DNA from: Spirochaetota bacterium
GTDB taxonomy: Bacteria; Spirochaetota; UBA4802; JAFGDQ01
Assembly: GCA_016932015.1 (NCBI GenBank)
Contig: JAFGDQ010000066.1
Span: 23,617 to 87,616 of the forward strand
Length of the DNA stretch: 64,000 nt
Reading direction: 5' to 3'
Shown piece after piece: positions 4,014 to 49,414 of the stretch; the stretch's first letter is position 1; each line of letters starts with the position of its first letter. A program made the translations under genes and the position numbers. The notes below the pieces were generated by a model, which worked only from the letters and a program-made list of their open reading frames with translations, had not been told where the DNA came from and did not search any database.

Positions 4014-4064
4014 CGAACTCCTTACTTAACTTATGAATTCATTGAGAAATGCGTATTTTTTATG

Positions 4065-4583: not shown

Positions 4584-4733
4584 TAAGACTGCTCCTTAAA
4601 TTATACTTATGCTAAAGTGATCAGCAGTATCAATATTTATCAATAAAAAAACACCTGAACATGTAATTACAATCAAACTTGACAAAGATAAGTGCGAATA
4701 TAACGATTGCCTTAATTATTCGGGAGACAACTG

Positions 4734-5327
4734 ATGGATTTTAATTTTAATAGTGAAAATGATTATACAAAATTTAAGCAGACAATAAAACAGAGGCTTG
4801 CACACAGGGATAAAATCAAAGCGGAGAAAACCGGAACAAGGCCCGCGGCAGTAATGATGCTCCTGATGAATAAAAACGGTAAAGTAAATGTATTCCTGAC
4901 AAAACGTACCCATAATGTCAGAACTCATAAAGGCCAGGTGTCTTTTCCGGGCGGAGCATGGGAGGAGGATGACGGAAATATCCTTGAAACTGCGCTGCGC
5001 GAGACATATGAGGAAACCGGTATTAAGCCTGATGATATTGAGTTAATCGGTGAATTTGATGAATTTATTTCAATAAGTGACTTTCATGTCAGTACGTTTG
5101 TAGGCGCAATTCCGTATCCGTACGAATACCGGATGAATAAGTCGGAAATTGAAGCATGCATAGAAGCACCGGTTTCAATTTTTTATAATAAAGAATACAG
5201 CAATGTTGACTATTATTACTATAATAATAAAAAAATGGCTAATTACTGCTATGAGTATATGGATTTTACTATATGGGGACTTACCGCAAGGATTTTGACA
5301 TTATTTGCGGAAAATGTACTGTACTGA
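4734..5327 (+). CDS. NUDIX hydrolase, CoA-pyrophosphatase-like
   Basis: Nudix box GGAWEEDDGNILETALRETYEETGI. Organisation as in NudL-type CoA pyrophosphatases. Confidence 0.7.
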   Translation: MDFNFNSENDYTKFKQTIKQRLAHRDKIKAEKTGTRPAAVMMLLMNKNGKVNVFLTKRTHNVRTHKGQVSFPGGAWEEDDGNILETALRETYEETGIKPDDIELIGEFDEFISISDFHVSTFVGAIPYPYEYRMNKSEIEACIEAPVSIFYNKEYSNVDYYYYNNKKMANYCYEYMDFTIWGLTARILTLFAENVLY

Positions 5328-5485
5328 TATGGCCGCGTATGATTCACGGGCAAAATTCATTGACACGGCAGTCGGGATTGCTCAATATTAACTCCTGCTT
5401 GCGGGAAAGAAAATTATCCGGGAAAACAGGTTGAATGTTCCGGGTAATTTATTTTTAAAAAATAAATTCAAGAGATTATTAAATT

Positions 5486-5755
5486 ATGAAAAAAGTATTA
5501 TTAGTCGCACTGGCTCTTCTTGCTTTTATTCCGGGTTGTTCTCAAAAGAAAATAACTGAAAGGGAATTTTCAGTTATCTGGGAGGAATATATGCGCAGGG
5601 AATTTGAAGAAAGCTTTGATGAAAAACAGTCGCTGGCCCAGAAAGAAAAAGTCATGTCAGAGATTTTATCCAGAGTACGGATTCCTGTTGAAGACTTCAA
5701 GGAATACATGAAAAATAATCACAACGATAAATACAAAAAAGTATTCATTAAATAA
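5486..5755 (+). CDS. small lipoprotein, hypothetical
   Basis: 89 aa. Signal peptide plus lipobox (LLAFIPGCSQ). Confidence 0.4.
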   Translation: MKKVLLVALALLAFIPGCSQKKITEREFSVIWEEYMRREFEESFDEKQSLAQKEKVMSEILSRVRIPVEDFKEYMKNNHNDKYKKVFIK

Positions 5756-5821
5756 TAAACATCATACAATTTAAATTAAAAGTGATGAGTAATTATCAGG
5801 ATAAAAAATAAGCGAGGCTGT

Positions 5822-7207
5822 ATGTTAAAACGGATCAGAGAACTGAAACTGCATCTTGTGATCGTAACATTCTTAACAGGAACTTTTTTCGGCATAAATA
5901 TTTCAGGCTTGTCAAGGGCTGAAGAGCCGATCCACAAGTATCTTGATTATTTTCACCGGGTGTACCAGACTGTAAAACTCAATTTTGTTGATGTACCGGA
6001 TAATAAGGAGATTTTTTACGGTGCCATAAAAGGAATGATAGCTTCGCTTAATGACCCTTATTCAAGATTTCTTGATGAAGAGGCCTTTATTACTTTGAAG
6101 GAAGAAACAACGGGAAAATTTGTCGGTATAGGAATTGAAATAACAATAAAAGACGGAGAGATAGTTGTAATATCTCCCATTGAAGATACTCCGGCTATGA
6201 AAGAGGGTATACTTTCAGGGGATGTTATAATAAAGGTTGATGATGTTGTAACCAAGGATAAGAATTTATCTGAAATAATTAAACTGATAAAAGGGCTCCC
6301 GAATACGGACGTCAAGCTTACGATCAGAAGAACGGGTTATGATGAACCTATGGATTTTACAATAAAGCGCGTTCCTATAAAGATCAAGACTGTGGATTAC
6401 GGTATACTGAAAGAATATAATAATATCGGATATTTAAAAGTAAAGGTTTTTAGTGCTGAAACTGCAAAGGATATTGAGAATTCACTGAATTTTTTTAATA
6501 AAAATGCTATTAAAAAGGTAATCGTGGATCTCAGATGGAACCCGGGAGGCCTGCTTGACAAGGCGATCAGTATTACGGATTTTTTTCTTGCGAAAGACAA
6601 AATTATTGTTTCAACCAGAGGCAGGGAAGGAACCGGGGATGTCTCTGAGTTTAAAGCTTTGATGGCACCGCTTTATAACGGAGAGCTTGTTGTTCTTGTC
6701 AATAATGGAAGTGCTTCAGCGTCTGAAATTTTTTCGGGAGCAATAAAAGACAATAACAGGGGAAAACTGATCGGCACCAGGACATTCGGAAAGGGGTCAG
6801 TTCAGAAGTTCTTTAATGTGAATGAAAATATCGGTGTTACCCTTACTATTGCCAGGTATTATACACCTTCAGGAGTTTCCATTCACGGGAAAGGAATTGT
6901 GCCTGACTTTGTTGTAAAACAGCCGCAGATTTCTAAACAGGATTCTGAAAGGATCAGGCTGATAACTAAAAGGGATATTCTTGGAAGTTTCGTAAAGTCC
7001 AATAAAAAATATGACGAAGAAACAAGGGATAAATTTAAAGCTCTTCTAAGCAAAGAAGGCCTTGATCTTATGGATAGAACCGCTGATTATATTTTAAAAA
7101 AGGAGATATTCAGATATAAAAATAGCCCTCTTTATGATCTGGAATTTGACAATCAGCTTACGGAAGCCATAAAAATTATTAATTCCATGCCTTCAGTAAA
7201 AGGATAA
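5822..7207 (+). CDS. ctpA: carboxyl-terminal processing protease (S41 family)
   Basis: PDZ domain followed by S41 catalytic region (GSASASEIF, TFGKGSVQ). Confidence 0.85.
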   Translation: MLKRIRELKLHLVIVTFLTGTFFGINISGLSRAEEPIHKYLDYFHRVYQTVKLNFVDVPDNKEIFYGAIKGMIASLNDPYSRFLDEEAFITLKEETTGKFVGIGIEITIKDGEIVVISPIEDTPAMKEGILSGDVIIKVDDVVTKDKNLSEIIKLIKGLPNTDVKLTIRRTGYDEPMDFTIKRVPIKIKTVDYGILKEYNNIGYLKVKVFSAETAKDIENSLNFFNKNAIKKVIVDLRWNPGGLLDKAISITDFFLAKDKIIVSTRGREGTGDVSEFKALMAPLYNGELVVLVNNGSASASEIFSGAIKDNNRGKLIGTRTFGKGSVQKFFNVNENIGVTLTIARYYTPSGVSIHGKGIVPDFVVKQPQISKQDSERIRLITKRDILGSFVKSNKKYDEETRDKFKALLSKEGLDLMDRTADYILKKEIFRYKNSPLYDLEFDNQLTEAIKIINSMPSVKG

Positions 7208-7261
7208 GAGGTATACAGTTAGAAGGAAGATTTATTCTCCTTCCGGGAAAATTGCTATTTC

Positions 7262-8254
7262 ATGAAGAATACAATATTAGGTCTTGGACTGGAAAGCTCA
7301 TGTGACGAGACTTCTGCTTCAGTCGTTGAAAACGGCAGAAAAATTCTTTCGAATAGAATAAAAAGTCAGATAGATCTGCATAAGGATTTTTTCGGAGTCG
7401 TTCCTGAACTGGCTTCCAGAGCGCATCTTGAGACTATTAATGTTCTTGTAAAGAATGCCCTTGAAGAAGCAGGGATAGGTTTTAAAGATCTGGACTACGT
7501 TGCCGCTACGTCAAGACCCGGGCTTGTAGGTTCATTGCTTATCGCGCTTCAGTCTGCCAAAGCTATTTCATATATAATGAAAATTCCGCTGATAGCGGTT
7601 AATCATCTGGAGGCACACCTTTACGCTCCATTTCTCGAAGGAGCCAGTCCGGAATATCCGTGTATTGGCCTTTTGATTTCAGGAGGAAATTGCAATTTAT
7701 ATATTATAAACGGTACCGGCAATATGAAACTTCTCGGGAAGACGGCTGACGATGCTCCGGGAGAGGCTTTTGATAAGGTCGCCAGATATCTGGATCTCGG
7801 ATATCCGGGAGGGCCGCTGGTTGAAAAGCTTGCCCGTGAATCAGGACAAAAACCAAAACTGTTTCCTAAAATAATGGCAGATTCAAACGATTATCGTTTT
7901 TCATACAGCGGCATAAAAACGGCAGTAGTAAATTATGTTAAGGAAAATCCTGACGCCGATAAAAGTGATATTGTTTTCAGCTTTCAGGAAAGAGCGCTTG
8001 AACTTCTTGTCAGAAAAGTGTATTCTGCGGCAAGGGAATTCGGAATCAGGGAAATTCTTGTTGCAGGCGGTGTTGCCGCCAACGGCAGATTAAGGGAAAT
8101 GCTTCAAAAAGAAAAGAAGCCTGATGAGAAAATAATTATAGCTTCACCGATACTTTGCACTGACAATGCTGCCATGATTGCGGGAATCGGGTACCAGTAT
8201 TTTATCAAAGGAAAGAATGATCCATTATCAGTTGATGCGGAGCCAAGAGTATAG
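7262..8254 (+). CDS. tsaD: tRNA N6-adenosine threonylcarbamoyltransferase
   Basis: LGLESSCDETSASV N-terminal motif. Kae1/TsaD-family length and motifs (HLEAH, GGVAAN). Confidence 0.9.
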   Translation: MKNTILGLGLESSCDETSASVVENGRKILSNRIKSQIDLHKDFFGVVPELASRAHLETINVLVKNALEEAGIGFKDLDYVAATSRPGLVGSLLIALQSAKAISYIMKIPLIAVNHLEAHLYAPFLEGASPEYPCIGLLISGGNCNLYIINGTGNMKLLGKTADDAPGEAFDKVARYLDLGYPGGPLVEKLARESGQKPKLFPKIMADSNDYRFSYSGIKTAVVNYVKENPDADKSDIVFSFQERALELLVRKVYSAAREFGIREILVAGGVAANGRLREMLQKEKKPDEKIIIASPILCTDNAAMIAGIGYQYFIKGKNDPLSVDAEPRV

Positions 8255-15759: not shown

Positions 15760-15828
15760 ATGCATAAATTTGCTTTTAAATTATGTCAATATATTTTTAA
15801 AATAAAATTTTATTAAAAAAATTTTTTT

Positions 15829-16422
15829 CTATTTTTTAATAACAGGAATAACTTTCCGGATATTCATGATCATTTTTTTCTGTAAATCAAAATTACCTTC
15901 ACTGATGCACCAGTGATATGCAGTTCCTCTTGCTACAGTAAAAAGAAAATCCGATACTTCATCCGGAGTCATTTTATCCGTTATTTCTCCATCTTTCTGC
16001 CCTTTGCTTATAATATCTGAGAGCATTATTAAGAGAAATCTTCCTTTGCTTAAAAAGAGCTTATTGTTTGAATGATAAAGTAATTTAAGCATATCAAGGC
16101 CTACATCAACATTATATTTTGCATAATACCGGAAGAAGGCCTCAATATTTTTTACTGAGGACTTGTCTTTTAATTTTTCGAATACTTTACTTTCAAAATG
16201 ATCGTCTATGCGTTTGAATATTTCTGTGAGTATATCGTACTTGGAGTCAAAATAGTGATAGAATGCACCTACTGAAACGCCGGCTTTTTTACTAATATCT
16301 TCTATTGTAATGCCGTCGAATCCGGATTTCTCCATCAGTTCTATTGCAGTTTCATAGATAGTCTTTTTGGTATTGAGCGCCTGGATTTTTCTTTTTGTTA
16401 AATTATCTGTTACTTTTTCCAT
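15829..16422 (-). CDS. TetR/AcrR family transcriptional regulator
   Basis: N-terminal HTH (TIEDISKKAGVSVGAFYHYFDSKYD), typical TetR length. Confidence 0.85.
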   Translation of the reverse strand: MEKVTDNLTKRKIQALNTKKTIYETAIELMEKSGFDGITIEDISKKAGVSVGAFYHYFDSKYDILTEIFKRIDDHFESKVFEKLKDKSSVKNIEAFFRYYAKYNVDVGLDMLKLLYHSNNKLFLSKGRFLLIMLSDIISKGQKDGEITDKMTPDEVSDFLFTVARGTAYHWCISEGNFDLQKKMIMNIRKVIPVIKK

Positions 16423-16591
16423 ATCAGGATAAATTACAGAACTAAAATTATTACACTATTGTATGTTTAAGGTTTAATAGTCACAGCATTAAAAAAAATG
16501 TCAAAGTTAAATTTAAATATTACAGTTTTTTTTCACTTTTTGCCGGATTTACGTTTATAGTATTTGCTGTTTTATGATAATATTCTGAAGG

Positions 16592-17452
16592 TTACTGCCC
16601 GCCTGCAGACTGAATTTCCCGTTTTAAAATTTTCATAACTTCAGGCAGTTTCCAGAAATCCTGTTTATCAGATTTTTCCCCGATATCCATGATGAATTTA
16701 ATTTTGTTTGTTCCGTTTATTCCGGCTGCTGTCTGCGCCTGTTTTCTGTAAATGGATTTTTCTTCACTCAGGAGCGTAATACTGCATTCAAGGTGAGGTA
16801 ATATCTTAACCGGCTGTTCCAGTTCCCATCCCCCTGCGGAACCGTACTCTTTAATGCGTATTTTATATTCCATGGAATCGGAAGGCAGAGAGTCGTATTC
16901 ATAGATACCTGATATACAGACTATGGAATACAGCTTTGTTACAAAAGGCGCAAATTTTATTGCAGCTTCCGATCCGGAATAAAAACCGGTAAAAGAAGCA
17001 GGTAAGGGCCCGTTAAGTTTGACAAGCTTTTCGTATATTCCATTGTAGACCATAATTTCCGATAATCCGTTATCCGGATTATATGCATACAGGCTTTCTC
17101 CGGAATCAACAATTACAATCAATGCATTATACCATGAAGAAAGTTCCTTCAGTTTCATTTCGTTTATAATTTTTTCAGGCGACAGGCTGTCTCCGTTTTC
17201 CGGTTTATGTTCACTGTAAAAAATCCACATCAGTAATTCAGGACTTTCAGGTAAAATAATATGCAGGTCTCTTGATACTGAAATTTTTCCTTTCCTGGCT
17301 GCAAATTTATAATTATCATTTACGGTTTTATACAGCTTTGCCGAGTCAAAATCACCCCATATTTTTTTTAAAGTGCTGAAGTCCGGTGCGTTTCCAGCAA
17401 AAGCCGGATATGTAATCAGAATCAGAAAAAAAGCAATTATTATTCTGAACAT
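16592..17452 (-). CDS. hypothetical secreted protein
   Basis: Signal peptide (ILITYPAFAGNAP). No recognised family. Confidence 0.45.
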   Translation of the reverse strand: MFRIIIAFFLILITYPAFAGNAPDFSTLKKIWGDFDSAKLYKTVNDNYKFAARKGKISVSRDLHIILPESPELLMWIFYSEHKPENGDSLSPEKIINEMKLKELSSWYNALIVIVDSGESLYAYNPDNGLSEIMVYNGIYEKLVKLNGPLPASFTGFYSGSEAAIKFAPFVTKLYSIVCISGIYEYDSLPSDSMEYKIRIKEYGSAGGWELEQPVKILPHLECSITLLSEEKSIYRKQAQTAAGINGTNKIKFIMDIGEKSDKQDFWKLPEVMKILKREIQSAGGQ

Positions 17453-17531: not shown

Positions 17532-18089
17532 CTATTGTATACGGTAAAGCACCATATGTTTTAAGGATATTTCTTCTATATCGTTGAACCCGGTTTTTTC
17601 AGCGGCTTTTATAATTTCTTCAGCTTTTAAACGATGAGACAGGGGCGGACCCTGTTTATCTTCACTGTACGGCCATTCCAGTATAATAACTCTGTGCCTT
17701 GTTACCCGTTTCGCTTCCTCTAAGGCCTTTTCAATGTCTGCTGTTTCATGGAGAATATGTCCCAGAAAAACAATGTCAAATTCATTATCGGGGAAGGGGA
17801 GAGATTCGGCTTTGCCGATTGAAAATATGCCCGAGGGAACATGTCTTTGTGCTTCGGAAAGCATATTTTGATTGATGTCAATTCCCGTTACAGCAAGGTT
17901 CCTTTCCGCGAACGCCTGGGCAAATACGGCGCTGCCGGTACCCACATCCAGCACTGATTTTACCTGAATATCCTGTATCGAAAGATCAACGACACGGCTG
18001 ATTTCAAGCATTTGAATCCGTTCATGTGAACGTAGTTTTTCTATTTTTCCCTTATACACACGGTTACTCATAAAGTTTCCTGAAAACAA
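17532..18089 (-). CDS. class I SAM-dependent methyltransferase
   Basis: Motif I VLDVGTGSAVFA and post-I acidic DID. Methyltransf_11-like. Confidence 0.8.
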   Translation of the reverse strand: MFSGNFMSNRVYKGKIEKLRSHERIQMLEISRVVDLSIQDIQVKSVLDVGTGSAVFAQAFAERNLAVTGIDINQNMLSEAQRHVPSGIFSIGKAESLPFPDNEFDIVFLGHILHETADIEKALEEAKRVTRHRVIILEWPYSEDKQGPPLSHRLKAEEIIKAAEKTGFNDIEEISLKHMVLYRIQ

Positions 18090-25520: not shown

Positions 25521-25904
25521 TTATTTAATAATATTTTTCATGGAAAAAGTTAATATACATAGATCATAAAAAAATCAGTACTTGTTTTAATTTATATTTA
25601 TTATTGCATTTTGCAATTATATATATATTTAACAGCTTATTAATGTGATTAAAAATGTCCTGTGCATGGTTGTCATTTCTTTTTTTAAAAATTTTGCAGG
25701 AAATCCGGTAATCCGGAAAATTTATACGATATTTCATTATTTTAATACCCTGTTATAAGGAAATTCAGATTATAATATTTGATTTGATGCCCTTCAGCTG
25801 GTTTCTCCAAATTGTCATTGACAAAATTATTTTACAAATTTTGACTGTTGTAAGTATTTATTAAATGTTTTTTTCAGGTAAATAATCCGGAATTTATTCC
25901 ATAT

Positions 25905-26210
25905 AAATACATAGTGTGCAGATGCTCCTGAAACAGGAGTAAAAAAGGGAAGCCCGTGAAAGCCGGGCACGGGCCCGCCGCTGTAACCGGGGACGAAAAC
26001 CGCAAAATACTTTTGATCCTTCAGGATCAAAAGTATTAAGGCACTGTCTGTCGATGAAGACCGATGGGAATGCGCGGTAATTAGATTGATCCGGAAGTCA
26101 GAAGACCTTTCTGTACAATAACACCCGGGTTCGGAGATAAAACCTGTGTGAGATGAATCGCGGATAAGAAAAGGGAATCCCGGGCACGAGCATGTTCGGG
26201 ATTTTTTTAT
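25905..26210 (+). promoter_or_regulatory. cobalamin (AdoCbl) riboswitch with intrinsic terminator
   Basis: Aptamer consensus AAAAAGGGAAGCCCGTGAAAGCCGGGCACGGGCCCGCCGCTGTAACCGGGG and B12-box GGCACTG. Terminator hairpin plus T7 at 26173-26210, about 135 bp before the cbiA start. Confidence 0.8.
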
Positions 26211-26344: not shown

Positions 26345-27700
26345 ATGAAAGCAATTGTAATAGCCGGAATTCAGAGCGGTACCGGGAAAACAACAGTAAG
26401 CATGGCAGTGATGCGGTGTCTGAAAAACAGAGGCAGGAATGTTGCTCCGTTTAAAACCGGGCCGGATTATATAGATCCCAAGTTTCACAAATTTATCACA
26501 GGCAATTCTTCATATAATCTTGACTCCTGGATGCTCGATGAAAATACTCTGAAATACCTTTTCCGGAAAAACAGCATGAATAAAGACATTGCTGTAGCTG
26601 AAGGAGTGATGGGGCTTTTTGACGGCAGCGGCACGGATGGCACAGGCAGTACTGCTCATCTGGCAAAAATACTCGGTGTTCCGGTAGTGCTTGTAGTTAA
26701 TGCTTCAGGTATGTCGGAAAGCGCGGCAGCAATGGTAATGGGCTATCGGGATTATGACAGAGATGTTGATCTTCGCGGTGTTATTTTTAACCGTGTATCC
26801 GGAGAGAGCCATTACTCTTTTCTTAAAAAAGCGGTAGAAAGAGATACAGGAGTCAAATGCCTGGGATATCTTGCTAAGAATGAAGAGATTAAACTCAGGA
26901 GCCGGCATCTGGGTTTAATTCCTGTTGAAGAGCTTGATGAACTTGAAGAGCAGGCTGATGCTTTGTCTGTTTCAGCTGAAGAGACAATAGACATTGACGG
27001 TATTGAAGAAATAGCAGAGATAAATGATCCGGAGAATAACATAAACGGGATATGTTTTCCTGAAGACGCAGGTAAAGGCCTCAAAATAGGAATGGCAATG
27101 GATGAGGCATTTAACTTTTATTATATGGACAATCTGAATCTGATGAAGGAAAGCGGAATTGACGTGGTTGAGTTCAGTCCGCTGAATGATGAGAAGCTTC
27201 CTGAAAATATTGACGGGCTTTATATTGGAGGCGGATTTCCTGAAGTATTCACGGAAAAAATTGCAGCAAATGTATCTATGAGAGAGGAGATAAAACAGAA
27301 AGCTCTGGCCGGGATGCCGGTTTATGCTGAATGCGGCGGCCTTATGTATCTAAGTACAGGTATTATACCTGAAGACGGGAAGTTTTATCCTGCGGTTGAT
27401 TTCTTCAAATGCAAAACAAGGATGACAAAAAGACTTCAGCGTTTCGGATATATTGAAGTGGAATACAATGGAATAATTACAAAGGCGCATGAGTTTCATC
27501 ATACTGTGCTTGAAGATGCTGATGAGACTGATTTTAATTACGCGTATTCAGTGAGAAATATTAATCGCGGCAGAGAATGGAAATGCGGACTTGTTAAAAG
27601 GAATGTACTGGCAGGTTATCCGCATATTCATTTTTACTCCAACCCGGAATTTTACGGGGAAATAATATCTCTTTTCAGAAAAGGAAAAGCTGACAGATAA
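26345..27700 (+). CDS. cbiA: cobyrinate a,c-diamide synthase
   Basis: N-terminal P-loop ATPase (IAGIQSGTGKTT), C-terminal GATase-like domain (ECGGLMYL). Confidence 0.88.
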   Translation: MKAIVIAGIQSGTGKTTVSMAVMRCLKNRGRNVAPFKTGPDYIDPKFHKFITGNSSYNLDSWMLDENTLKYLFRKNSMNKDIAVAEGVMGLFDGSGTDGTGSTAHLAKILGVPVVLVVNASGMSESAAAMVMGYRDYDRDVDLRGVIFNRVSGESHYSFLKKAVERDTGVKCLGYLAKNEEIKLRSRHLGLIPVEELDELEEQADALSVSAEETIDIDGIEEIAEINDPENNINGICFPEDAGKGLKIGMAMDEAFNFYYMDNLNLMKESGIDVVEFSPLNDEKLPENIDGLYIGGGFPEVFTEKIAANVSMREEIKQKALAGMPVYAECGGLMYLSTGIIPEDGKFYPAVDFFKCKTRMTKRLQRFGYIEVEYNGIITKAHEFHHTVLEDADETDFNYAYSVRNINRGREWKCGLVKRNVLAGYPHIHFYSNPEFYGEIISLFRKGKADR

Positions 27701-30310: not shown

Positions 30311-31813
30311 ATGTCAAAAAATATAATGGTTCTGGGAACCGCATCATCAGTCGGGAAAAGCATAATCGCGGCAGCGCTTTGCAGAATTTTTGTTCAGGAC
30401 GGATTTAAAACCGCTCCTTTTAAATCACAGAATATGGCGTTAAATTCGTTTGTCACAAAGGACGGAGGTGAAATGGGAAGGGCGCAGGTTGTTCAGGCCG
30501 AAGCCTGCGGTATTGATCCGTCAGTATTGATGAATCCGGTTTTACTTAAACCGACTTCGGACAGAAAAGCACAGGTCATAATAAACGGCAAAGTTTTTCA
30601 AAATATGGATGCTGTTGAGTATCATGAATTCAAGCCTCAGGTTAAGGGCGTTATTACTGAAGCATATAATAAGCTGAGCAGTAATTTTGATGTAATAGTA
30701 CTTGAAGGAGCAGGCAGCCCCGCGGAAATCAACCTTCGTGAAAACGACGTGGTTAACATGGGCATGGCTGAAATGGTGGACGCGCCTGTTCTGCTTGTGG
30801 CTGATATAGATAAGGGAGGTGTGTTTGCTTCGATCTACGGTACTATAGCTCTGCTGAAACCTGAGGAGAAGGAGCGCGTAAAAGGCGTAATAATAAATAA
30901 ATTCAGGGGCGATGTCAAACTGCTTGAACCGGGAATAAAAACAATAGAGGAAATGACAGGTGTGCCTGTTCTGGGAGTTATTCCTTACGTCAGGGTGGAG
31001 CTTGAAGATGAGGACAGTGTTACGGAAAGGTTTAAAAGAAAAGAACACAGCGGAGAAATAAAGATTGATGTTATAAGACTGCCCCGTATTTCGAATTTTT
31101 CGGATTTTGATGCGTTCGGCATGCATGAAGATGTAAGTCTTAATTATGTGGAGACAGCTGATCAGATTGAAGATCCTGATATAATTATAATACCCGGAAG
31201 CAAGAACACGGTTTATGATATGTCATTCCTCAATGAATCAGGTATTGATAAAAAGATTCTGGATGCGCATAAAAACGGAACACTTCTTTTCGGGATATGC
31301 GCTGGATTTCAGATGCTGGGCGATGTTATTGAAGACCCTCATGGAATTGAAGGGCCTCAGAAATCCATAAAAGGTCTGGGTATCTTTAAGATCGGTACAT
31401 CTATTGCTGAAGAGAAAGTAACCAGGCAGGTAAAAGGGACTATAACCGCAAATACTGACATGCTTCAGGGACTGAAAGACGTGGACATACAGGGTTATGA
31501 AATTCACATGGGCCGGAGCTCTGGCCTGGATGATTATGAAATTCTGGCTGAAACGGATAACGGTGTAAACGGCATTACGGGAAACAATGCCGTAGGCACA
31601 TATCTGCACGGTATTTTTGACAGCGTGGATTTTACAAGAGGCCTGCTTAACAATGTAAGGGAAAGGAAAGGACTGAAGCCTCTTCAGTCAAAAGGTACTT
31701 TTTCAGAGAAGAAGGAAGGTGAATTCAATAAACTCGCGAAAACAGTTCGTGATAATATTGATATGAAAATGATCTATAAAATTCTGAATAACGGCGATGT
31801 TTCATCAAATTAA
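30311..31813 (+). CDS. cobQ: cobyric acid synthase
   Basis: 500 aa. N-terminal ATPase (GTASSVGKS), C-terminal GATase (GICAGFQMLG). Confidence 0.9.
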   Translation: MSKNIMVLGTASSVGKSIIAAALCRIFVQDGFKTAPFKSQNMALNSFVTKDGGEMGRAQVVQAEACGIDPSVLMNPVLLKPTSDRKAQVIINGKVFQNMDAVEYHEFKPQVKGVITEAYNKLSSNFDVIVLEGAGSPAEINLRENDVVNMGMAEMVDAPVLLVADIDKGGVFASIYGTIALLKPEEKERVKGVIINKFRGDVKLLEPGIKTIEEMTGVPVLGVIPYVRVELEDEDSVTERFKRKEHSGEIKIDVIRLPRISNFSDFDAFGMHEDVSLNYVETADQIEDPDIIIIPGSKNTVYDMSFLNESGIDKKILDAHKNGTLLFGICAGFQMLGDVIEDPHGIEGPQKSIKGLGIFKIGTSIAEEKVTRQVKGTITANTDMLQGLKDVDIQGYEIHMGRSSGLDDYEILAETDNGVNGITGNNAVGTYLHGIFDSVDFTRGLLNNVRERKGLKPLQSKGTFSEKKEGEFNKLAKTVRDNIDMKMIYKILNNGDVSSN

Positions 31814-41881: not shown

Positions 41882-43123
41882 TTAATCTATACCTACACAG
41901 TTAACAAAATATGAGCCGTAAGAATTTTGTGAATATGAATAACTTGCGCCTCCATCACCCCATTTCCAAAAATTAGTATAATCAACAGTTGTCTGCCAGT
42001 AGGTTGACGTTGATCTTGGCGTAAAGAATCCCATAAAGTAGTAAATTGATGAATCAGGTGGGAGGGGTACTGCTGTATATGTAGTATCAGTATTATTATA
42101 GTAAAATCTATTCCATGTGTAGCTTGATGAATTTTTAATCCATAGTGCAAAATGGTCTGATTCTAAATGAGGATCTTCTGTATGCGTCATTTCAGTTGCA
42201 GGAATATATGTATCACCCCAGGTTAAAGTTTCTCCCATTCCTGTATTATACGAACTCGCACTCCATGTAATTGATCCCGGTTTAGAAGCGTAAGTAACTT
42301 TGTGTACAGAATCAGGTTGATTCTGAGAGCTTGTGCTTGAGCTGATATGAGTTGATATTATACCTGCTGTCCCATTGACGACCCTGAACGTGTAAATAGT
42401 CGATGCGCTGTCAGCCCATCCTTCCTGCCCGTAATCATCCTTGTAGCTTTCAATTCCAGAATAGTCTACAGCAGATATTGTATAATAATAATGAATATCC
42501 GCTGTTACTGAAAGATCGTCATATGAATCGTCCACTGAAGAACCGACATAAGTAAAAGGTCCCCAAGCTGATTCTCCTCTATATATTTTAATATATGCTG
42601 CATCTCCATAATGGTTCCAGGATATATTTACATAATCTGGATACGTCCCTTGACTAGGCCAATTCAATCCTGGTGTATCAATGGTTGATCCCGAATTTGA
42701 TGACCATCCTTCATCTGCTGTACTTTTTGAACTAGTGGAATTGGCAATAGTAGAACTTGTTGCTGTTACTGCATACCAGTAATGAGTGTCCTGAGTCGCA
42801 GATGTGTCAGTCCAAGAAGTTATTGTTGCTGGATCAGCCGAGCCAACTTCCTCATTGATATCATCTGGTGAGGTACCGCGAAATATGGCATACCAATCAG
42901 CATTACTGACGGAATTCCAGCTAATGATAACATAGTTAGCATAGATACCGTCAGTTGCAGTGACTCCTGTCGGTACTGAAAGTCGGCTGTCATCGCTACT
43001 ACTACCACCGCCACAATAAAGAAAACCAGACATAAATAAACACGATAAAACCAAACATAATTTTTTCATAAAATGTCTCCAGATAAAATAGTATAAAGGT
43101 TTTAAAGGCGAAAGGGGCTTCAC
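41882..43123 (-). CDS. cell-surface lipoprotein with fibronectin-III-like repeat modules
   Basis: Signal plus Cys (FMSGFLYCGGGSS). Two modules with (Y.NYV.ISWN....A.Y.I.RG.S) signature. Ser/Thr-rich linkers. Trp-rich C-terminus. Confidence 0.6.
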   Translation of the reverse strand: MKPLSPLKPLYYFIWRHFMKKLCLVLSCLFMSGFLYCGGGSSSDDSRLSVPTGVTATDGIYANYVIISWNSVSNADWYAIFRGTSPDDINEEVGSADPATITSWTDTSATQDTHYWYAVTATSSTIANSTSSKSTADEGWSSNSGSTIDTPGLNWPSQGTYPDYVNISWNHYGDAAYIKIYRGESAWGPFTYVGSSVDDSYDDLSVTADIHYYYTISAVDYSGIESYKDDYGQEGWADSASTIYTFRVVNGTAGIISTHISSSTSSQNQPDSVHKVTYASKPGSITWSASSYNTGMGETLTWGDTYIPATEMTHTEDPHLESDHFALWIKNSSSYTWNRFYYNNTDTTYTAVPLPPDSSIYYFMGFFTPRSTSTYWQTTVDYTNFWKWGDGGASYSYSQNSYGSYFVNCVGID

Positions 43124-43290: not shown

Positions 43291-44526
43291 TTAATACAAA
43301 TACAGCGGATGCGAATCCGGATTCTTCCCGAAGAAAGTAACATCGTCAATCTTCTGTATTTTCTCGCCTTTCAGAAGAGTGTACAGGGTACGCTCAATGC
43401 CTATGCCTCCGCCGAAAGTGTCAGGGAAAAGCGGGTTCCCGTTTTCGTGCTTCATGGCTACGAACTGAAGGAAGGGGCCGTAGCCGCCGAGTTCGTCAAT
43501 ATTTTCGATGTTTCCGTTCTTCAGAACAGGCCTTGAAGGAAGTATCTTGTTGTCTATGATTCTTTCGACAATCGGCTCATACAGCCATTCGCGAATGGCG
43601 CCTGAAAGGATTTCTCTTGCCTGAGAGTGTTTGCCTGTTTTCAGGTCAATGCTTTTTGCGAGTATATCATAGTTAAAAACATTGGTGGAGTTTACGTTTG
43701 AGAAATCAATCCTGGTTCCGTCCGGATAAAGATAAGGATAAATGAGGTCATAGTTTTCACGAAGCAGTCCCGTAATCCAGAAAAACTGCGCGTCAGTTGC
43801 TTCGCCTGCTTTCTCCTCAAAGTTTTTTGCACCGTATTTTTTAACGCAGTCGTCCTTGTGAAAACTCGGGAACGGAGTTTCGGGAACGCTCAAAACAATG
43901 CTGAGGTCTTTCAGGTTTTGCGAATTATTTTTGTTAATCTCTTCGCAGGCGAATACTATCATTCTTTCAAAAAAATCTTTTGCTTTGACCATGTCTTCGT
44001 TCAAAGCATCAAGTACCATCTGTTCCTTATTAAAGTAATCATCGAGAGTTATTTTTCTATCGCGTTTTATCTCAATGTCCATCTGTGAAAAATCTGCAAG
44101 GTATTTACCGCGCTGTGCTCCTGTTGGGCTTTCTATTTCAAGACGAATGTTGGGGGAGTCCACAAAGATACCTTTGATGCGCGGATTGGAGCATGCGAGA
44201 AATTTGCTGTAAATCATGCTGTGCGTGGTAAGATATGTATGGCCCTTGTATTCTATTGCAGGTGTATGTTCAATATCATGCGCGAGCGGATCTGTTATAA
44301 TGCTTAACATGATTTTTTCAAGGTTGAAAAGTCCTTCCTTTACAAGAAACTGGTTCATTGCGTTTACAAAGCTGGTGCGTATTGCAATGACATTATAAAG
44401 TTCGTCGGATATCCATTTGCCGGAGTAATTCGCTTTTATGTAATCCTCCATGGTTTCGCCGCCTTCATTAATTGCTGACTGGAACCTGAAAAGACTTTCG
44501 CCTATAACCTTGATTTTATCTTCCAT
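43291..44526 (-). CDS. asnA: AsnA-like aspartate-ammonia ligase (class II aaRS catalytic-core paralogue)
   Basis: 411 aa. Class II aaRS-like core with motif-3-like GGGIGIERTLYTLL. No anticodon-binding domain. Longer than E. coli AsnA, so the call is tentative. Confidence 0.6.
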   Translation of the reverse strand: MEDKIKVIGESLFRFQSAINEGGETMEDYIKANYSGKWISDELYNVIAIRTSFVNAMNQFLVKEGLFNLEKIMLSIITDPLAHDIEHTPAIEYKGHTYLTTHSMIYSKFLACSNPRIKGIFVDSPNIRLEIESPTGAQRGKYLADFSQMDIEIKRDRKITLDDYFNKEQMVLDALNEDMVKAKDFFERMIVFACEEINKNNSQNLKDLSIVLSVPETPFPSFHKDDCVKKYGAKNFEEKAGEATDAQFFWITGLLRENYDLIYPYLYPDGTRIDFSNVNSTNVFNYDILAKSIDLKTGKHSQAREILSGAIREWLYEPIVERIIDNKILPSRPVLKNGNIENIDELGGYGPFLQFVAMKHENGNPLFPDTFGGGIGIERTLYTLLKGEKIQKIDDVTFFGKNPDSHPLYLY

Positions 44527-44596
44527 ATTATTTTTTACCCCGATGATATCGATAATTTATGATAAATTTTCTATTTCAGCCGATAAATTACTTTTA

Positions 44597-44613
44597 TTGA
44601 CAAATAATGTCAA
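44597..44613. promoter_or_regulatory. perfect palindrome TTGACAAATAATGTCAA in divergent asnA / gatA-aspS promoter region
   Basis: 6-bp arms TTGACA/TGTCAA with a 5-bp AT spacer, centred in the 205-bp divergent intergenic region. Confidence 0.35.
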
Positions 44614-44731
44614 ATAGAAGATTTGGCAAAGTTAACATTATTGTAACAAAATTTTTTTTATTGCGTTGCGCCATGTTAAATATTATCATATTTGTCCTAT
44701 TTGACTAAAATAATGTTAAAATCCGGTATAT

Positions 44732-47620
44732 ATGAGCTTAATAAGTGAAAAAAACGCGAAAGAGATAGTTACTCTTGTAAATGAAAAATCACTGTCATGT
44801 GAGGAACTGCTGAATGACTGTTTCAGCCAGATTGAGAAATATGATCCTGTGCTTGAAAGCTTTATTTCTTTATATGATAAAGAGACACTTGTAAAAGAGG
44901 CAAGGGAGAGCGACAGCAGGCGGTCAAAAAACGCACAATTGAGCGCTATTGACGGGATTCCTCTTGCTGTTAAAGATAATATCCATTCACAAGGCATACC
45001 TACAACATGCGCTTCCAGAATACTTGAAAATTATAATCCTCCTTATGATGCTACTGCCGTAAGTCTCATTAAAAACAGCGGCGGTATTATACTCGGTAAG
45101 ACCAATATGGATGAATTTGCCATGGGGTCAACATGCGAGCATTCAAGCATGTGCCATACACGGAATCCGTGGGACATTCACCGTGTACCGGGCGGCTCAT
45201 CTGGCGGGTCTGCGGTTGCTGTTTCGGCTGGCATGACTCCGTTTGCTCTCGGAAGCGATACAGGCGGGTCTATTCGTCAGCCTGCGGCTTTCTGCGGAGT
45301 AACAGGTTTAAAACCGACATACGGGCTTGTCTCACGCTACGGGCTTGTAGCATATGCTTCATCGCTTGACCAGATAGGACCAATGTCACGTGACGTTTAC
45401 GGAAACGCGCTGCTGCTGAATATAATAAGCGGTTATGATGTGAATGACTCCACATCGCTTAACCATGAAAAGACAGATTATACTGCAAAACTCGGACAGG
45501 ACATAAAAGGAAAGCGCATAGCTGTTTTCAGGGAGCTTTTAAAAGAGGGAATTTCTCCACAGGTAATGAGAGAATTTGAGAAATCTCTTAAAGTATTAAA
45601 AGAGCAGGGCGCATTAATAGAGGAAGTTTCTTTTGAAGCAGTCAGGTATGTGATCGCAGCGTATTATTTTATTGCATGCGCGGAAGCATGCTCAAATCTT
45701 TCCAGATACGACGGCGTGAAATACGGATTCAGAAGCGGAAAACAGACAGATTATCAGGAAATGCTTTTCACAACGCGTTCCTACGGATTCGGCAAGGAAG
45801 TAAAGAAAAGAATTCTTCTTGGAAACTTTGTCCTTTCCTCAGGTTATTATGATGAGTATTACAGAAAAGCGCAGAAAGTCAGAACACTGATAAGAGATGA
45901 ACTTAAAAAGATTTTTGAAACTGCTGATGTAATTGCCATGCCGACAACTCCTGATATTGCTTTTAAGCATGGAGAGAGCAGCCTTGATCCTATGAGGATG
46001 TATCTTTCTGATATTACAACTGTTATACCGAATCTTTCCGGCCTGCCTGCCATCAGCATTCCGTGCGGCATGGCTGACGGTATGCCTGTAGGGCTTCAGT
46101 TCATAGGCAAACCGCTCGATGAGCAGATGCTGCTGCAGGCGGCATCAATTTACGAAAGCAGCAGAAAAGAAAAATATATTCCTGAGCTTGATCATATTCT
46201 GGATGAGAATGTACCGGGTAAACCGCATTCGGATTCACAGAAGAAAGATGTTTCAGTAAAAGCCTCTGTTTACACTATGAAGGATGTTAAGAAGATTTCC
46301 GAAACCTACTCGGAAAGAACATCTAAAAAGAGCAGAGTATACTGCAGGGACCTTGATTCAAAAGAAGGAAAGAAAGTAACTCTGGGCGGCTGGATTCACA
46401 GCAAAAGAAATCTCGGCGGAATTGATTTTTATATACTCAGGGATAAAACAGGATTTACACAGCTTGTACTTGAAGGCGAAAAGCCGATAGAAAAGCTGAA
46501 CCTTGAAACTGTAGTTGAGGTTTACGGCCGCGTTACAAAAGAAAAACGCAGCCCGTATAGAAATATAGAAATTAAAGTTGAAAAGCTGGATATACTCGGC
46601 CATGCGGAAAGCAGTCTGCCGTTAAATATCAACAGCAGTCTTGAAAATATTAATTTACCGACAATACTCGACAACAGAACCGTATCGGTAAGAAATCCTG
46701 AAATACAGTCAGTTTTCAGGCTGCAGTCAAAAATAGTTAAGCATTTTTCGGATTATCTGAGAGACAATGATTTTACCGAGATAAAGACTCCGAAGATAGT
46801 TTCAAGCGGTGCAGAGGGCGGCACTAATATTTTCGAGCTTAAGTACTTTGACCGCTCAGCTTATCTTGCGCAGTCCCCGCAGTTTTACAAGCAGATCATG
46901 GTGGGCAGCGGCATGGAAAGAGTATTTGAGGTCGGGCCTGTGTTCAGGGCTGAACATCATGATACTGTGCGTCATTTAAATGAATACACCAGCATGGATT
47001 TTGAAATGGGATTCATTGAGAATGAGCAGGATGTCATAGACATGCAGGAAGCTCTGATAAAATATATTTTTAAAAATCTAAAGAATGATTTTAAAGGGGA
47101 CGCAGGGTATAAGAACATGTCATTTGATGTTCCCAAAAAATTCCCGCGCATACATTTTCTTGAAGCTATGGAGATTCTGTCATCGCTCGGCGTAAGGGAT
47201 ATGGAGGAAGGAGATATTTCCCCGGCAGGTGAAAAAGCGTTATGTGACTATTTCGAGGAGAAGGAAAATTCTTCCTTTGTTTATGTCGTAGGCTACCCTG
47301 TAAAGAAAAGGCCTATGTATACAATGCCTGATGAAAGGCTGCCCGGTTATACCAGAAGCTTTGACCTTTTATATAAGGGAATTGAAATAACAACAGGCGG
47401 GCAGCGCATTCACGATTATCATCAGCTCAGGGATAACATTGTGGATTTCGGTTTTAATCCGAGAGAGTTTAAAGATTATCTTGATATATTTAAGTACGGA
47501 ATGACCCCGCACGGCGGTCTTGGAATGGGGCTTGAAAGGCTTACAATGAAAATAATGAATCTTAAAAACATCAGGGAAGCAGCACTGTTCCCTAGAGATA
47601 TAAACAGGCTTACGCCTTAA
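44732..47620 (+). CDS. gatA-aspS: fusion protein: Glu/Asp-tRNA amidotransferase subunit A (GatA) + archaeal-type aspartyl-tRNA synthetase
   Basis: Residues ~1-485 carry the amidase signature GGSSGGSAVAVSAG...GSDTGGSIRQPAAFCGVTGLKPTYG. After a ~45-aa linker come an OB-fold (VTLGGWIHSKRNLGGIDFYILRD) and class II motifs FRAEHHDTVRHLNEY and GGLGMGLERLTMKIM...FPRDINRLTP. Single uninterrupted 962-codon ORF. Confidence 0.85.
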   Translation: MSLISEKNAKEIVTLVNEKSLSCEELLNDCFSQIEKYDPVLESFISLYDKETLVKEARESDSRRSKNAQLSAIDGIPLAVKDNIHSQGIPTTCASRILENYNPPYDATAVSLIKNSGGIILGKTNMDEFAMGSTCEHSSMCHTRNPWDIHRVPGGSSGGSAVAVSAGMTPFALGSDTGGSIRQPAAFCGVTGLKPTYGLVSRYGLVAYASSLDQIGPMSRDVYGNALLLNIISGYDVNDSTSLNHEKTDYTAKLGQDIKGKRIAVFRELLKEGISPQVMREFEKSLKVLKEQGALIEEVSFEAVRYVIAAYYFIACAEACSNLSRYDGVKYGFRSGKQTDYQEMLFTTRSYGFGKEVKKRILLGNFVLSSGYYDEYYRKAQKVRTLIRDELKKIFETADVIAMPTTPDIAFKHGESSLDPMRMYLSDITTVIPNLSGLPAISIPCGMADGMPVGLQFIGKPLDEQMLLQAASIYESSRKEKYIPELDHILDENVPGKPHSDSQKKDVSVKASVYTMKDVKKISETYSERTSKKSRVYCRDLDSKEGKKVTLGGWIHSKRNLGGIDFYILRDKTGFTQLVLEGEKPIEKLNLETVVEVYGRVTKEKRSPYRNIEIKVEKLDILGHAESSLPLNINSSLENINLPTILDNRTVSVRNPEIQSVFRLQSKIVKHFSDYLRDNDFTEIKTPKIVSSGAEGGTNIFELKYFDRSAYLAQSPQFYKQIMVGSGMERVFEVGPVFRAEHHDTVRHLNEYTSMDFEMGFIENEQDVIDMQEALIKYIFKNLKNDFKGDAGYKNMSFDVPKKFPRIHFLEAMEILSSLGVRDMEEGDISPAGEKALCDYFEEKENSSFVYVVGYPVKKRPMYTMPDERLPGYTRSFDLLYKGIEITTGGQRIHDYHQLRDNIVDFGFNPREFKDYLDIFKYGMTPHGGLGMGLERLTMKIMNLKNIREAALFPRDINRLTP

Positions 47621-47641
47621 CAGTACAATCCGGCGGCATAG

Positions 47642-49414
47642 ATGAAACATAAATCAAAAATAAATATTGAAAATCTGATTGAGCTTGCGTCGTTTGAAGT
47701 AAGTGAAGAGGAAAAGAAACAGTTGGAGAATGAACTGGATGAATTTCTCGCGTATGCTCATGTAATAGACAATGCTCCGTGCGGAGACATGACACCCTCA
47801 AGCCATGCGGTCGAAAAAGAAGCATATATGCGTGAGGATGAAATCAGCGCGTGGGACAAAGTTGAAAAGATAATGGGAAACAGCCCTGTAACGGAAGGGC
47901 AGAGCTATCTTGTTCCTCCCCAGAAAACAACAGCAGTTATGCTGGATGATGAAAACGAGGAAAGCGAAAAGCCGTATGACGGAGAACTGGAGCCTGTAAT
48001 AGGCCTTGAGGTTCATGCGAGGCTGAAAACAAAGAGCAAGCTGTTCTGCAGCTGCTCAACACAATTCGGCGATGAAGCTAACAGCAATGCGTGCCCTGTG
48101 TGTTCAGGCCAGCCCGGCGTTCTTCCTGTATTAAACCGGGAAGCAGTCAACATGGCTATCATTGCAGGGCTTGCTGTCGGATGCACTGTTAATAAGCACT
48201 CCGTATTCGCGCGAAAAAATTATTTTTATCCCGACCTTCCAAAAGGATACCAGATCTCGCAGTTTGAAGAACCTGTATGCTCCGGCGGCGGTGTTGACAT
48301 TGAAATAGACGGAAAAGTAAAAACAGTAAGGCTTAACAGAATTCACATGGAAGAGGACGCGGGTAAGATGGTTCATGTGGGAGCTCCCGGAATATGGGGC
48401 GCAAAAGCAAGTGCTGTCGACTTTAACAGATGCAGCGTTCCTCTTATTGAGATAGTAACGGAACCGGATCTTTCGTCTCCCGAAGAAGCAAGGGAATACG
48501 TTACCATGCTCAGGGCAGTGCTTGTTTCTCTTGGAATCTGTGATGGAAATATGGAAGAGGGCAGCCTTAAATGTGATGCGAACGTTTCCGTAAGGCCTGT
48601 CGGCTCAAAGAAACTCGGCGTTAAAGTGGAAATCAAGAACATGAACTCATTCAAGGCTATTGAAAGAGCTCTTGATTTCGAAATCGTCCGCCTGAAAAAG
48701 ATGAAGCAGAAAGGCATACGCATAAAACAGGAAACCAGGGGATGGGACGAAAGCGGACAGAAAACATACTCAATGAGGGGCAAAGAGGAGTCCCAGGATT
48801 ACAGGTATTTTCCTGATCCTGACCTTCTTCCTGTAGTGCTTACTGATGAATGGATAAACAGCCTTAAAGACCGCGTTACGGAATCTCCTTTGAATGGGAA
48901 GAAGAAGTGCATTGATAATTATTCTTTTTCTGAAAATGAAGCCCGCCTGTTTATGGTTAATCCTTCCTACAGCGAGTATTTTGAAAAGGTGCTGCAGTAT
49001 TATGATAATCCCAGGGCACTTGCCAACTGGTTTTTCAGCGAGATATTGTCCCAGACAGGCGGAGACATGGGAAGTATACATATTACACCTGACGATCTGG
49101 CAGAATTCCTCAAGAGAATAGATAAGGGAGAAATAAGCGGAAAGATTGGCAAGGATGTCCTGAAAAAAGCGTTCACTGAAAAGAAAGGCCTTGTTGAAAT
49201 AATTGAAAACGAGAACCTGAAGCAGGAGACTGATACAGGAGTTATTGAGAAGATAATAGATGAAATTATTGAAAAAAATCCTTCTCAGGTAGCTGAATAT
49301 AAAAGCGGTAAAACTAAACTTCTCGGATTCTTTGTGGGAGAGACAATGAAAGCTTCTCAGGGCAAGGCTAATCCGAAAATTGTTAATGAGATTTTAAGAG
49401 AGAAGCTTAAGTAA
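47642..49414 (+). CDS. gatC-gatB: fusion protein: GatC + GatB amidotransferase subunits
   Basis: N-terminal ~95 aa resemble GatC (NIENLIELASFEVSEEEKKQL...MREDE). An acidic linker follows. GatB starts at EPVIGLEVHARLKTKSKLFCSC...CPVCSGQPGVLPVLN and includes the C-terminal YqeY-like tail. 590 aa against ~480 for GatB alone. Confidence 0.85.
   Translation: MKHKSKINIENLIELASFEVSEEEKKQLENELDEFLAYAHVIDNAPCGDMTPSSHAVEKEAYMREDEISAWDKVEKIMGNSPVTEGQSYLVPPQKTTAVMLDDENEESEKPYDGELEPVIGLEVHARLKTKSKLFCSCSTQFGDEANSNACPVCSGQPGVLPVLNREAVNMAIIAGLAVGCTVNKHSVFARKNYFYPDLPKGYQISQFEEPVCSGGGVDIEIDGKVKTVRLNRIHMEEDAGKMVHVGAPGIWGAKASAVDFNRCSVPLIEIVTEPDLSSPEEAREYVTMLRAVLVSLGICDGNMEEGSLKCDANVSVRPVGSKKLGVKVEIKNMNSFKAIERALDFEIVRLKKMKQKGIRIKQETRGWDESGQKTYSMRGKEESQDYRYFPDPDLLPVVLTDEWINSLKDRVTESPLNGKKKCIDNYSFSENEARLFMVNPSYSEYFEKVLQYYDNPRALANWFFSEILSQTGGDMGSIHITPDDLAEFLKRIDKGEISGKIGKDVLKKAFTEKKGLVEIIENENLKQETDTGVIEKIIDEIIEKNPSQVAEYKSGKTKLLGFFVGETMKASQGKANPKIVNEILREKLK

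Follow-up and report, generated by a model that had tools for sequence, protein, structure and literature searches.

The stretch of DNA analysed here, 64,000 nucleotides from contig JAFGDQ010000066.1 of a Spirochaetota bacterium (the window), contains a gene for a paralogue of the aminoacyl-tRNA synthetases (aaRSs) that lies back to back with the fused genes of an asparagine (Asn) transamidosome. The paralogue, referred to below as X411, is encoded on the minus strand (43291–44526) by an open reading frame (ORF) of 411 aa that ends in GGGIGIERTLYTLL and corresponds to a class-II aaRS catalytic core. An intergenic region of exactly 205 bp (44527–44731; GC content 24%) separates X411 from the divergent gatA-aspS fusion on the plus strand (44732–47620; 962 aa), in which an Amidase domain (GatA) is joined to an OB anticodon domain and tRNA-synt_2. 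A gap of 21 nt then leads to the gatC-gatB fusion (47642–49414, plus strand; 590 aa), which carries the Pfam domains GatC, GatB_N, and GatB_Yqey. This layout, in which an AsnA-like gene lacking an anticodon-binding domain faces gatA-aspS and then gatC-gatB across 205 bp, had been proposed in an initial annotation made from the DNA alone, and it agrees with the ORFs and with the Pfam and NCBIfam domains, Pfam giving X411 a tRNA-synt_2 core only. The accompanying statement that all three proteins are built on the catalytic fold of aspartyl-tRNA synthetase (AspRS) is true only of X411 and the C-terminal half of GatA-AspRS, since GatA is one of the amidase-signature proteins, and the families of GatB and GatC are different again. 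The database record identical to the X411 protein is hypothetical protein JW864_11200 from a Spirochaetes metagenome-assembled genome (MAG).

X411 and archaeal asparagine synthetase A

In Pfam, X411 matches tRNA-synt_2 alone, and weakly (33.5 bits); an N-terminal OB-fold is missing, as no tRNA_anti-codon domain is reported. AspRS models give it 20–24 bits against equivalog cutoffs of 353–368, which together with the tRNA-synt_2-only domain content rules out a truncated true AspRS or asparaginyl-tRNA synthetase (AsnRS). The best NCBIfam match is NF005054, 'asparagine synthetase A' of the archaeal AsnRS-paralogue type (AS-AR), at 129.5 bits. The relatives P0122 and P0126 score 102 and 147 bits on the same model, and outgroup proteins of ~310 aa score 300–398 bits, five of the six exceeding the cutoff of 309. 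Among structures in the Protein Data Bank (PDB), only the archaeal AsnA chains 1NNH and 3P8T match X411 clearly by sequence, over residues 39–157. When a profile of 40 X411 sequences was compared by hhalign with one of 21 true AS-AR proteins, the two families aligned over 299 columns with a probability of 100, an E-value of 2e-48, and 32% identity, spanning AS-AR positions 16–314 of 315, that is, the whole AS-AR length.

The AlphaFold model (AF2) of X411, with a predicted local distance difference test (pLDDT) of 77 and a predicted template modelling score (pTM) of 0.83, has as its top Foldseek matches 3RL6, 3REX, 3P8T, and 1NNH, the AsnA structures of P. abyssi and P. furiosus, at target-normalised TM-scores (TMt) of 0.67–0.69. 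These are followed by the catalytic domains of archaeal AspRS and AsnRS, and the E. coli-type AsnA structure 4LNS comes at rank 32. At E ≤ 0.01, X411 has no match to PF03590, the E. coli-type AsnA family, in the Pfam search, and none to EpmA/GenX or other aaRS-like modifying-enzyme models in NCBIfam; similarity to SerRS-like ligases was likewise absent from the family-model search. An E. coli-type AsnA and an EpmA-like enzyme are thereby ruled out. Of the name AsnA-like, then, the sense of an asparagine-synthetase-like aaRS paralogue stands, the type being archaeal AS-AR by profile and fold and not that of E. coli. Clustering with a tRNA-modifying paralogue, which had been raised as the finding that would count against this identity, was not observed, because no EpmA/GenX or similar match was obtained. 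The ~80 extra N-terminal aa that X411 was said to have relative to E. coli AsnA lose their meaning, since PF03590 gives no match and 4LNS ranks so low. Relative to archaeal AsnA, the excess is ~100 residues, made up of an N-terminal extension of ~36 aa and four internal insertions. By these comparisons, X411 belongs to a distinct, previously unnamed bacterial sister family of archaeal asparagine synthetase A, a bacterial AS-AR variant by sequence that lies below the curated membership cutoff and has a different architecture.

Residues that are invariant or nearly so in AS-AR are kept in X411 at TDPL, S103/I105/K108, SPNIRLE (R128, E130), F146/Q148/D150/E152, R256/Y259, D287, E305, and S308/G309/R312, as are G372/G374/G376/R379 of motif 3. 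The only such positions that are changed are E120 (Asp), P200, P230, and the motif-1 Pro. The class-II ATP-binding residues are thus represented by R128/E130 of motif 2, by E305, and by the four residues of motif 3. The ATP- and Mg-binding class-II residues and the amino-acid-binding residues K108, D150, and R312 are invariant across 40 diverse members of the family. The latter three we take to be the Asp-type (Asp-binding) Lys, Asp, and Arg. Other highly conserved residues are specific to the family, namely W38, Y263/P264, N342, G348-Y349-G350-P351-F352, and N402-P403-D404-S405-H406.

Archaeal AS-AR ('AsnRS2'; PRK06462, NF005054) is, like X411, a free-standing class-IIb core without an anticodon-binding domain, and the two have in common the motifs TDPL, (T/H)SMI..K, SPNIRLE, (E/D)F(T/S)Q.D.E, RE(F/N)YD, SG..RE, and GGG.G.ER. 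In a multi-family alignment, several of these traits are absent from AsnRS and AspRS: TDPL, SMI in place of SGQ/SPQ, SPNIRLE as motif 2, and RE(F/N)YD, to which the loss of the EGG/flipping-loop segment is added. Neither AS-AR nor X411 retains the segment employed by AspRS and AsnRS close to the acceptor end. AS-AR proteins are ~295–320 aa long in contrast to the 411 aa of X411, and X411 differs further from the archaeal proteins in being bacterial, in occurring in at least seven phyla, and in its asnS or glnA/gltB operon contexts. AsnRS and archaeal-type AspRS resemble X411 in the catalytic fold, in motifs 2 and 3, and in the Asp-type K108 and R312, but both possess an OB-fold anticodon-binding domain and the EGG/flipping-loop segment, and X411 has neither. 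The reaction predicted for X411 is that of E. coli-type AsnA (PF03590; e.g., T. brucei 4LNS), the two have the general class-II fold in common, and the rule that AsnA implies AsnRS (PMC4206432) is mirrored by the X411-asnS gene pair.

The X411 family comprises more than 1000 clusters at 90% identity, and nearly all of the members listed are 411 aa long. Their database names are 'hypothetical', 'amino acid--tRNA ligase-related', or 'aspartyl/asparaginyl-tRNA synthetase', and literature searches turned up no paper on the family. Among 1.84 billion cluster representatives scanned, ~6 full-length clusters at 50% identity are of the X411 type, beyond which there is a gap before the true AS-AR proteins of ~310 aa appear. 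In data with one genome per species, at least 321 genomes encode X411. The best 80 of these 321 genomes include Spirochaetota, Cloacimonadota, Planctomycetota, Desulfobacterota, Fibrobacterota, Ignavibacteria (Ignavibacteria-type Bacteroidota), and Marinimicrobia, with identities of 57–82% across phyla.

Genomic contexts of X411

Gene neighbourhoods were compared at 84 loci, in which ORFs were called and searched with the window proteins and an AsnRS; all neighbours were clustered, and recurrent clusters were named by Pfam. In Spirochaetota, asnS lies downstream of X411 on the same strand at 33 loci, with a median gap of 24 nt and a gap of at most 300 nt in 31 of the 33. The asnS product beside X411 in one of these loci (L001) scores 679 bits on the AsnRS equivalog. 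In other phyla, X411 lies inside ammonium-assimilation operons of the form amt-glnB-glnA-X411-gltBD. Glutamine synthetase type I (GS-I) is encoded directly upstream at 12 loci (median gap 29.5 nt; 11 at ≤300 nt) and GS-III at seven (median gap 63 nt; all seven at ≤300 nt), while gltB, for the large subunit of glutamate synthase, is directly downstream at 10 of 10 loci (median 28.5 nt) and is followed by gltD; amt and glnB (P-II) are found farther upstream. The full order amt-glnB-glnA(type I or III)-X411-gltB-gltD occurs in Planctomycetota, Desulfobacterota, and other phyla (L049–L082; e.g., L049, L052, L054, and L070), where the gaps from X411 to glnA and gltB are 8–105 nt. The order amt-glnB-GSIII-X411 is found at two spirochaete loci (L008 and L042), and in the nearest relatives of the window GSIII, amt, P-II, nif genes, or a sigma-54 activator occur a few kb away at most. 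Among the neighbours of X411 that recur at the 84 loci, there is no carrier protein, no transferase, and no biosynthetic cluster.

A published rule holds that every prokaryote with ammonia-dependent AsnA also has AsnRS (PMC2330236; PMC4206432), and the pairing of X411 with asnS fits this rule. Ammonia-dependent asparagine synthesis is favoured because two independent contexts, AsnRS on the one hand and ammonia assimilation on the other, converge on it. The location of X411 between glnA and gltB further suggests that asparagine formation is part of the ammonium-assimilation regulon in the phyla concerned.

Within the window, the place that asnS occupies in relatives, downstream of X411, is taken by a gene on the minus strand (41882–43123) for a Ser/Thr/Tyr-rich protein of 413 aa with a lipoprotein-like signal sequence and internal repeats. 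Neither asnB nor asnS is among ten large ORFs of the window, and a search for a remnant of asnS, by tblastn of AsnRS against the 64 kb, matched the AspRS domain only. Other peculiarities concern individual relatives. At L039, X411 is followed by an uninterrupted ORF of 1193 aa (3942–7523) that includes asnS; its AsnRS match is confined to residues 8–453, so that it is either an AsnRS with a C-terminal fusion of ~740 aa or an assembly or frameshift artefact. At 11 spirochaete loci (L001, L013, L014, L017, L019–L021, L023–L025, and L030), X411 is preceded on its own strand by a gene of the adenylosuccinate-lyase family (Lyase_1 and ADSL_C), another aspartate-related neighbour; the two are separated by a CoA-ligase-like gene in L001.

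Fused transamidosome genes and the divergent spacer

All protein components of an Asn-transamidosome, GatA, GatB, GatC, and an archaeal-type AspRS, are encoded at 44732–49414. The GatA amidase part of the 962-aa fusion (residues ~1–490; 44732–46201, plus strand) scores 606 bits on TIGR00132 (cutoff 481). A Lys/Ser-rich, poorly conserved linker (residues ~490–530; conservation 0.19–0.28) joins it to the archaeal-type AspRS part (residues ~530–962; 46307–47617, plus strand), which reaches 559 bits on the aspartate--tRNA(Asn) ligase model NF003483 (cutoff 353). The best AspRS models of the fusion being those of aspartate--tRNA(Asn) ligase, the locus is indeed concerned with asparagine, as had been supposed. 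In the GatC-GatB fusion, GatB scores 640 bits on NF004014 (cutoff 414), and GatC scores 43.5 bits on TIGR00135, just below the cutoff of 47.1, and 33.7 against a cutoff of 23 for Pfam GatC. The components correspond to those of the T. thermophilus Asn-transamidosome, which consists of non-discriminating AspRS2 (ND-AspRS2), GatCAB, and tRNAAsn (3KFU), except that here the four protein components form two polypeptides, GatA-AspRS and GatC-GatB. Annotated bifunctional proteins of the AspRS-GatC type (NF009460) also exist, whereas the fusions of this locus pair GatA with AspRS and GatC with GatB instead. No tRNA genes were found within the 64-kb window.

His556 and Pro608 of the AspRS domain align with W26 and K85 of T. 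kodakarensis AspRS, are identical to the residues of T. thermophilus ND-AspRS2, and are both conserved in 58 of 66 GatA-AspRS fusions. Feng et al. are said to have found in 2003 that either W26H or K85P makes the T. kodakarensis AspRS non-discriminating. Judging from these two positions, the AspRS domain of GatA-AspRS is probably non-discriminating. In overall similarity, it scores 348 bits against T. thermophilus ND-AspRS2 and is about as similar to the T. kodakarensis enzyme. GatA-AspRS fusions form ~68 clusters of ~960 aa, mostly from Spirochaetota MAGs, and also occur in Ca. Uabimicrobium amorphum and a Chrysiogenales MAG. All of them are named 'GatA' only in the database, and no paper describing a natural GatA-AspRS fusion was found in the literature.

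Divergent gatA-aspS/gatC-gatB genes upstream of X411 were found only in the window, L004, L005, L007, L011, L084, and the P0010 contig, whose X411 proteins are 72–82% identical. The picture of two Asn routes placed back to back, one tRNA-independent and one tRNA-dependent, is therefore correct for ~7 close loci only and does not extend to a general layout, the usual partners of X411 being asnS downstream, or glnA upstream and gltB downstream. L011 has both kinds of neighbour, with gatCB and gatA-aspS divergent upstream and asnS after X411; its spacer is 865 bp long and by eye seems to contain another ORF, and the intergenic length across the loci is 205–865 bp. On one contig of 4.80 Mb, 1.6 Mb separate X411-asnS from the GatA-AspRS fusion and the gatCB that accompanies it; X411, AsnRS, and the fused indirect route therefore typically occur together in the lineage. 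Genera that combine AsnA, AsnRS, and GatCAB were already present in surveys (PMC4206432). The adjacency of X411 and gatA-aspS is thus a lineage-specific local rearrangement and not a conserved functional unit.

The initial annotation had also described a perfect palindrome at 44597–44613, within one control region from which both routes might be co-regulated. TTGACAAATAATGTCAA is found at this position and is unique in the window, but it is an inverted repeat and not a perfect palindrome: in TTGACA-AATAA-TGTCAA, arms of 6 nt surround a non-symmetric spacer of 5 nt, and the reverse complement is TTGACATTATTTGTCAA. The 24%-GC intergenic region holds four inverted repeats (arms ≥6, spacer 0–10) as compared with 2.0 ± 1.9 in shuffled versions, 77% of which have at least one, so that the repeat is within chance. 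Nor is it conserved, as the minus-strand half TTTGACATTATT alone recurs, in L004 and L007, and the other arm does not. A single palindromic control region for both Asn routes is not supported. An Rfam search of 44527–44731 returned no family at E ≤ 1.

One arm of this repeat is a TTGACA box (44608–44613, minus strand), a candidate −35 element 87 nt upstream of the X411 ATG, with TAATTT (44585–44590, minus strand) as a weak candidate −10 element 17 nt downstream of it. Of ~83 non-duplicate loci, 35 carry TTGACA between −49 and −131 upstream of X411, among them six from Cloacimonadota in which the box lies at −70 to −73; by our estimate, about 0.03 per locus would be expected by chance. A sigma-54 type −24/−12 promoter was not seen by eye in the spacer. 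At many loci (L001, L013, L017, L023, L024, and L030), a (C)AATTTGC(T/A) sequence occurs ~21 nt downstream of TTGACA and about −60 nt from the X411 start. It is neither a TATAAT-like −10 element nor a GG-N10-GC sigma-54 site, and some Cloacimonadota loci (L058 and L066) have CCTTTGC at a similar offset.

Alignment of upstream regions revealed a further element, an operator-like inverted repeat TTACA-N4-TGTAA (44633–44646), of which the window has the plus-strand copy TAACATTATTGTAA with one mismatch. In seven related, otherwise diverged upstream regions, the element stands out as an invariant block, and it is perfect in L004, L005, L006, L007, and L084. Its distance from the TTGACA box, on the side away from X411, is 33 nt in the window and 25–43 nt across loci. 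Eight perfect copies occur in the 1.46 Mb of fetched loci, and six of these are within 300 nt upstream of X411. TTACA-N4-TGTAA could be a binding site for a dimeric regulator. The element also occurs in L006 and L015, which lack a divergent gatA-aspS and have an upstream gene that runs in the same direction as X411. The conserved elements therefore belong to the upstream region of X411 itself, and a control region shared with gatA-aspS is not demonstrable from them. L006 carries a second perfect copy (17677–17690) ~350 nt upstream of a GAF/sigma-54-activator gene (15795–17327, minus strand). Its proximity to amt and glnB hints that TTACA-N4-TGTAA may mark a small nitrogen-related regulon.

Predicted function of X411

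Taken together, homology to AS-AR and the two gene contexts make it likely that X411 is an ammonia-dependent, tRNA-independent asparagine synthetase, which would constitute a new bacterial AS-AR-like subfamily, feed AsnRS, and be tied to nitrogen assimilation. In the proposed mechanism, the class-IIb catalytic core would bind aspartate and ATP to form aspartyl-adenylate. Ammonia would then attack the adenylate, giving free asparagine and AMP, and the free asparagine would be used by AsnRS. Supply of Asn to AsnRS would account for X411 normally being the first gene of the X411-asnS pair in Spirochaetota, and ammonia-dependent synthesis would account for its location between glutamine synthetase and glutamate synthase genes in other phyla. 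In the clade of the window, the tRNA-dependent two-gene module has come to lie divergently upstream of X411, with asnS no longer adjacent, and X411 has upstream signals of its own in the TTGACA box and, farther up, TTACA-N4-TGTAA. What the analysis observed directly is the homology, the conservation of residues and motifs, and the gene contexts; the substrates, the product, the promoter assignment, and the regulator are inferred.

Several observations weigh against this proposal. The NF005054 score of 129.5 bits compares with a curated cutoff of 309, and residues 36–261 alone are aligned. The ~100 residues by which X411 exceeds AS-AR lie in an N-terminal extension that is helical and in insertions at about 156–176, 262–275, 291–300, and 330–346. 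The motif-1 proline is absent, X411 having NLEKIMLS where AS-AR has EIPPVILS, and GAIRE takes the place of GGERE; because of these two changes, a different acceptor or an added function may be considered. The glnA and gltB neighbours point to amide or nitrogen metabolism generally and not to Asn specifically. An asnS gene was not located for the window genome, the AsnRS search having covered the 64-kb window, and the function is a prediction for every member of the family. As for the upstream signals, the −10 hexamers 16–18 nt downstream of TTGACA are weak, with at least four of six matches in 7 of 35 cases, and a consensus sigma-70 scan does not call the TTGACA/TAATTT promoter in the window. 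The simplest reading of the TTGACA box, that of a −35 element, is therefore tentative.

The same departures from AS-AR would be explained if X411 activated aspartate or a related acid and passed the adenylate to an acceptor other than ammonia, whether a small-molecule amine, a carrier protein, or another protein, in the manner of EpmA/GenX or the amino-acid:carrier-protein ligases. The four insertions and an N-terminal helix bundle would then form the acceptor site, which would agree with a score well under the AS-AR cutoff, with the high conservation of the ~100 family-specific residues themselves, with the change of GGERE to GAIRE and the loss of the motif-1 Pro, and with a cross-phylum conservation (57–82%) that is unusually high. 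However, the recurrent neighbours are asnS, glnA, gltB, amt, and glnB, with neither a biosynthetic cluster nor a gene for a carrier protein or transferase among them; in the family-model search X411 resembles neither EpmA nor SerRS-like ligases, and it has the presumed Asp-binding K, D, and R in common with AS-AR, leaving another acceptor quite improbable. The missing proline also suggests an altered dimer interface that might allow heteromeric pairing. Given the tight linkage of X411 to enzymes open to regulation, it could be imagined as a catalytically inactive regulator or sensor, like HisZ for HisG, which senses Asp, Asn, or ATP and modulates AsnRS, glutamine synthetase, or an amidotransferase. 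The invariance of the ATP-, Mg-, and amino-acid-binding residues in 40 diverse members is the pattern expected of an active enzyme, and makes such a role exceedingly unlikely.

Two further proposals concern the clade of the window and its fused genes. X411 and the transamidosome genes may form one co-regulated asparagine unit that acts through inverted repeats in the 205-bp spacer, a view compatible with X411 being an asparagine synthetase. The divergent arrangement does recur, in the window and the six other loci named above, and the symmetric TTACA-N4-TGTAA between both genes could act in both directions. Against this, the arrangement belongs to one shallow clade, the fusion and X411-asnS are 1.6 Mb apart in the relative with the 4.8-Mb contig, the spacer varies from 205 to 865 bp and in L011 includes an apparent ORF, the element is found as well beside a co-directional upstream gene (L006 and L015), and the supposed palindrome is at chance level and not conserved; a common unit is accordingly unlikely. 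It is very improbable, but would be of consequence, that the clade of the window lacks AsnRS, in which case X411 would be the first AsnA-type enzyme kept beside Asn-tRNA synthesis by transamidation only. The rule that AsnA implies AsnRS would then be broken and a new role of X411 implied. As Asn can serve alongside Gln for some GatCABs (PMC2330236), X411 might supply it as amide donor to the fused GatA. Alternatively, X411 might channel substrate by docking onto the AspRS domain or AsnRS through the class-II dimer interface that seems altered in it.

If X411 is an asparagine synthetase, it would provide an unrecognised route to free asparagine in many anaerobic bacteria of the seven phyla listed. 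Because current annotation names X411 'hypothetical' or synthetase-like, pathway reconstructions would score its hosts as Asn auxotrophs, as tRNA-dependent, or as having a spurious extra synthetase, and annotation and pathway inference would be corrected for many uncultured anaerobes. For the evolution of aaRSs, the paralogue described as a 'synthetase that invents its own amino acid' would extend beyond archaea into bacteria, in a deep branch that was elaborated separately and is physically coupled to asnS.

Elsewhere in the window, CobQ/CobB-like amidotransferase genes at 26345–27700 and 30311–31813 are preceded by a cobalamin riboswitch (25903–26128, plus strand; Rfam RF00174, 79 bits).

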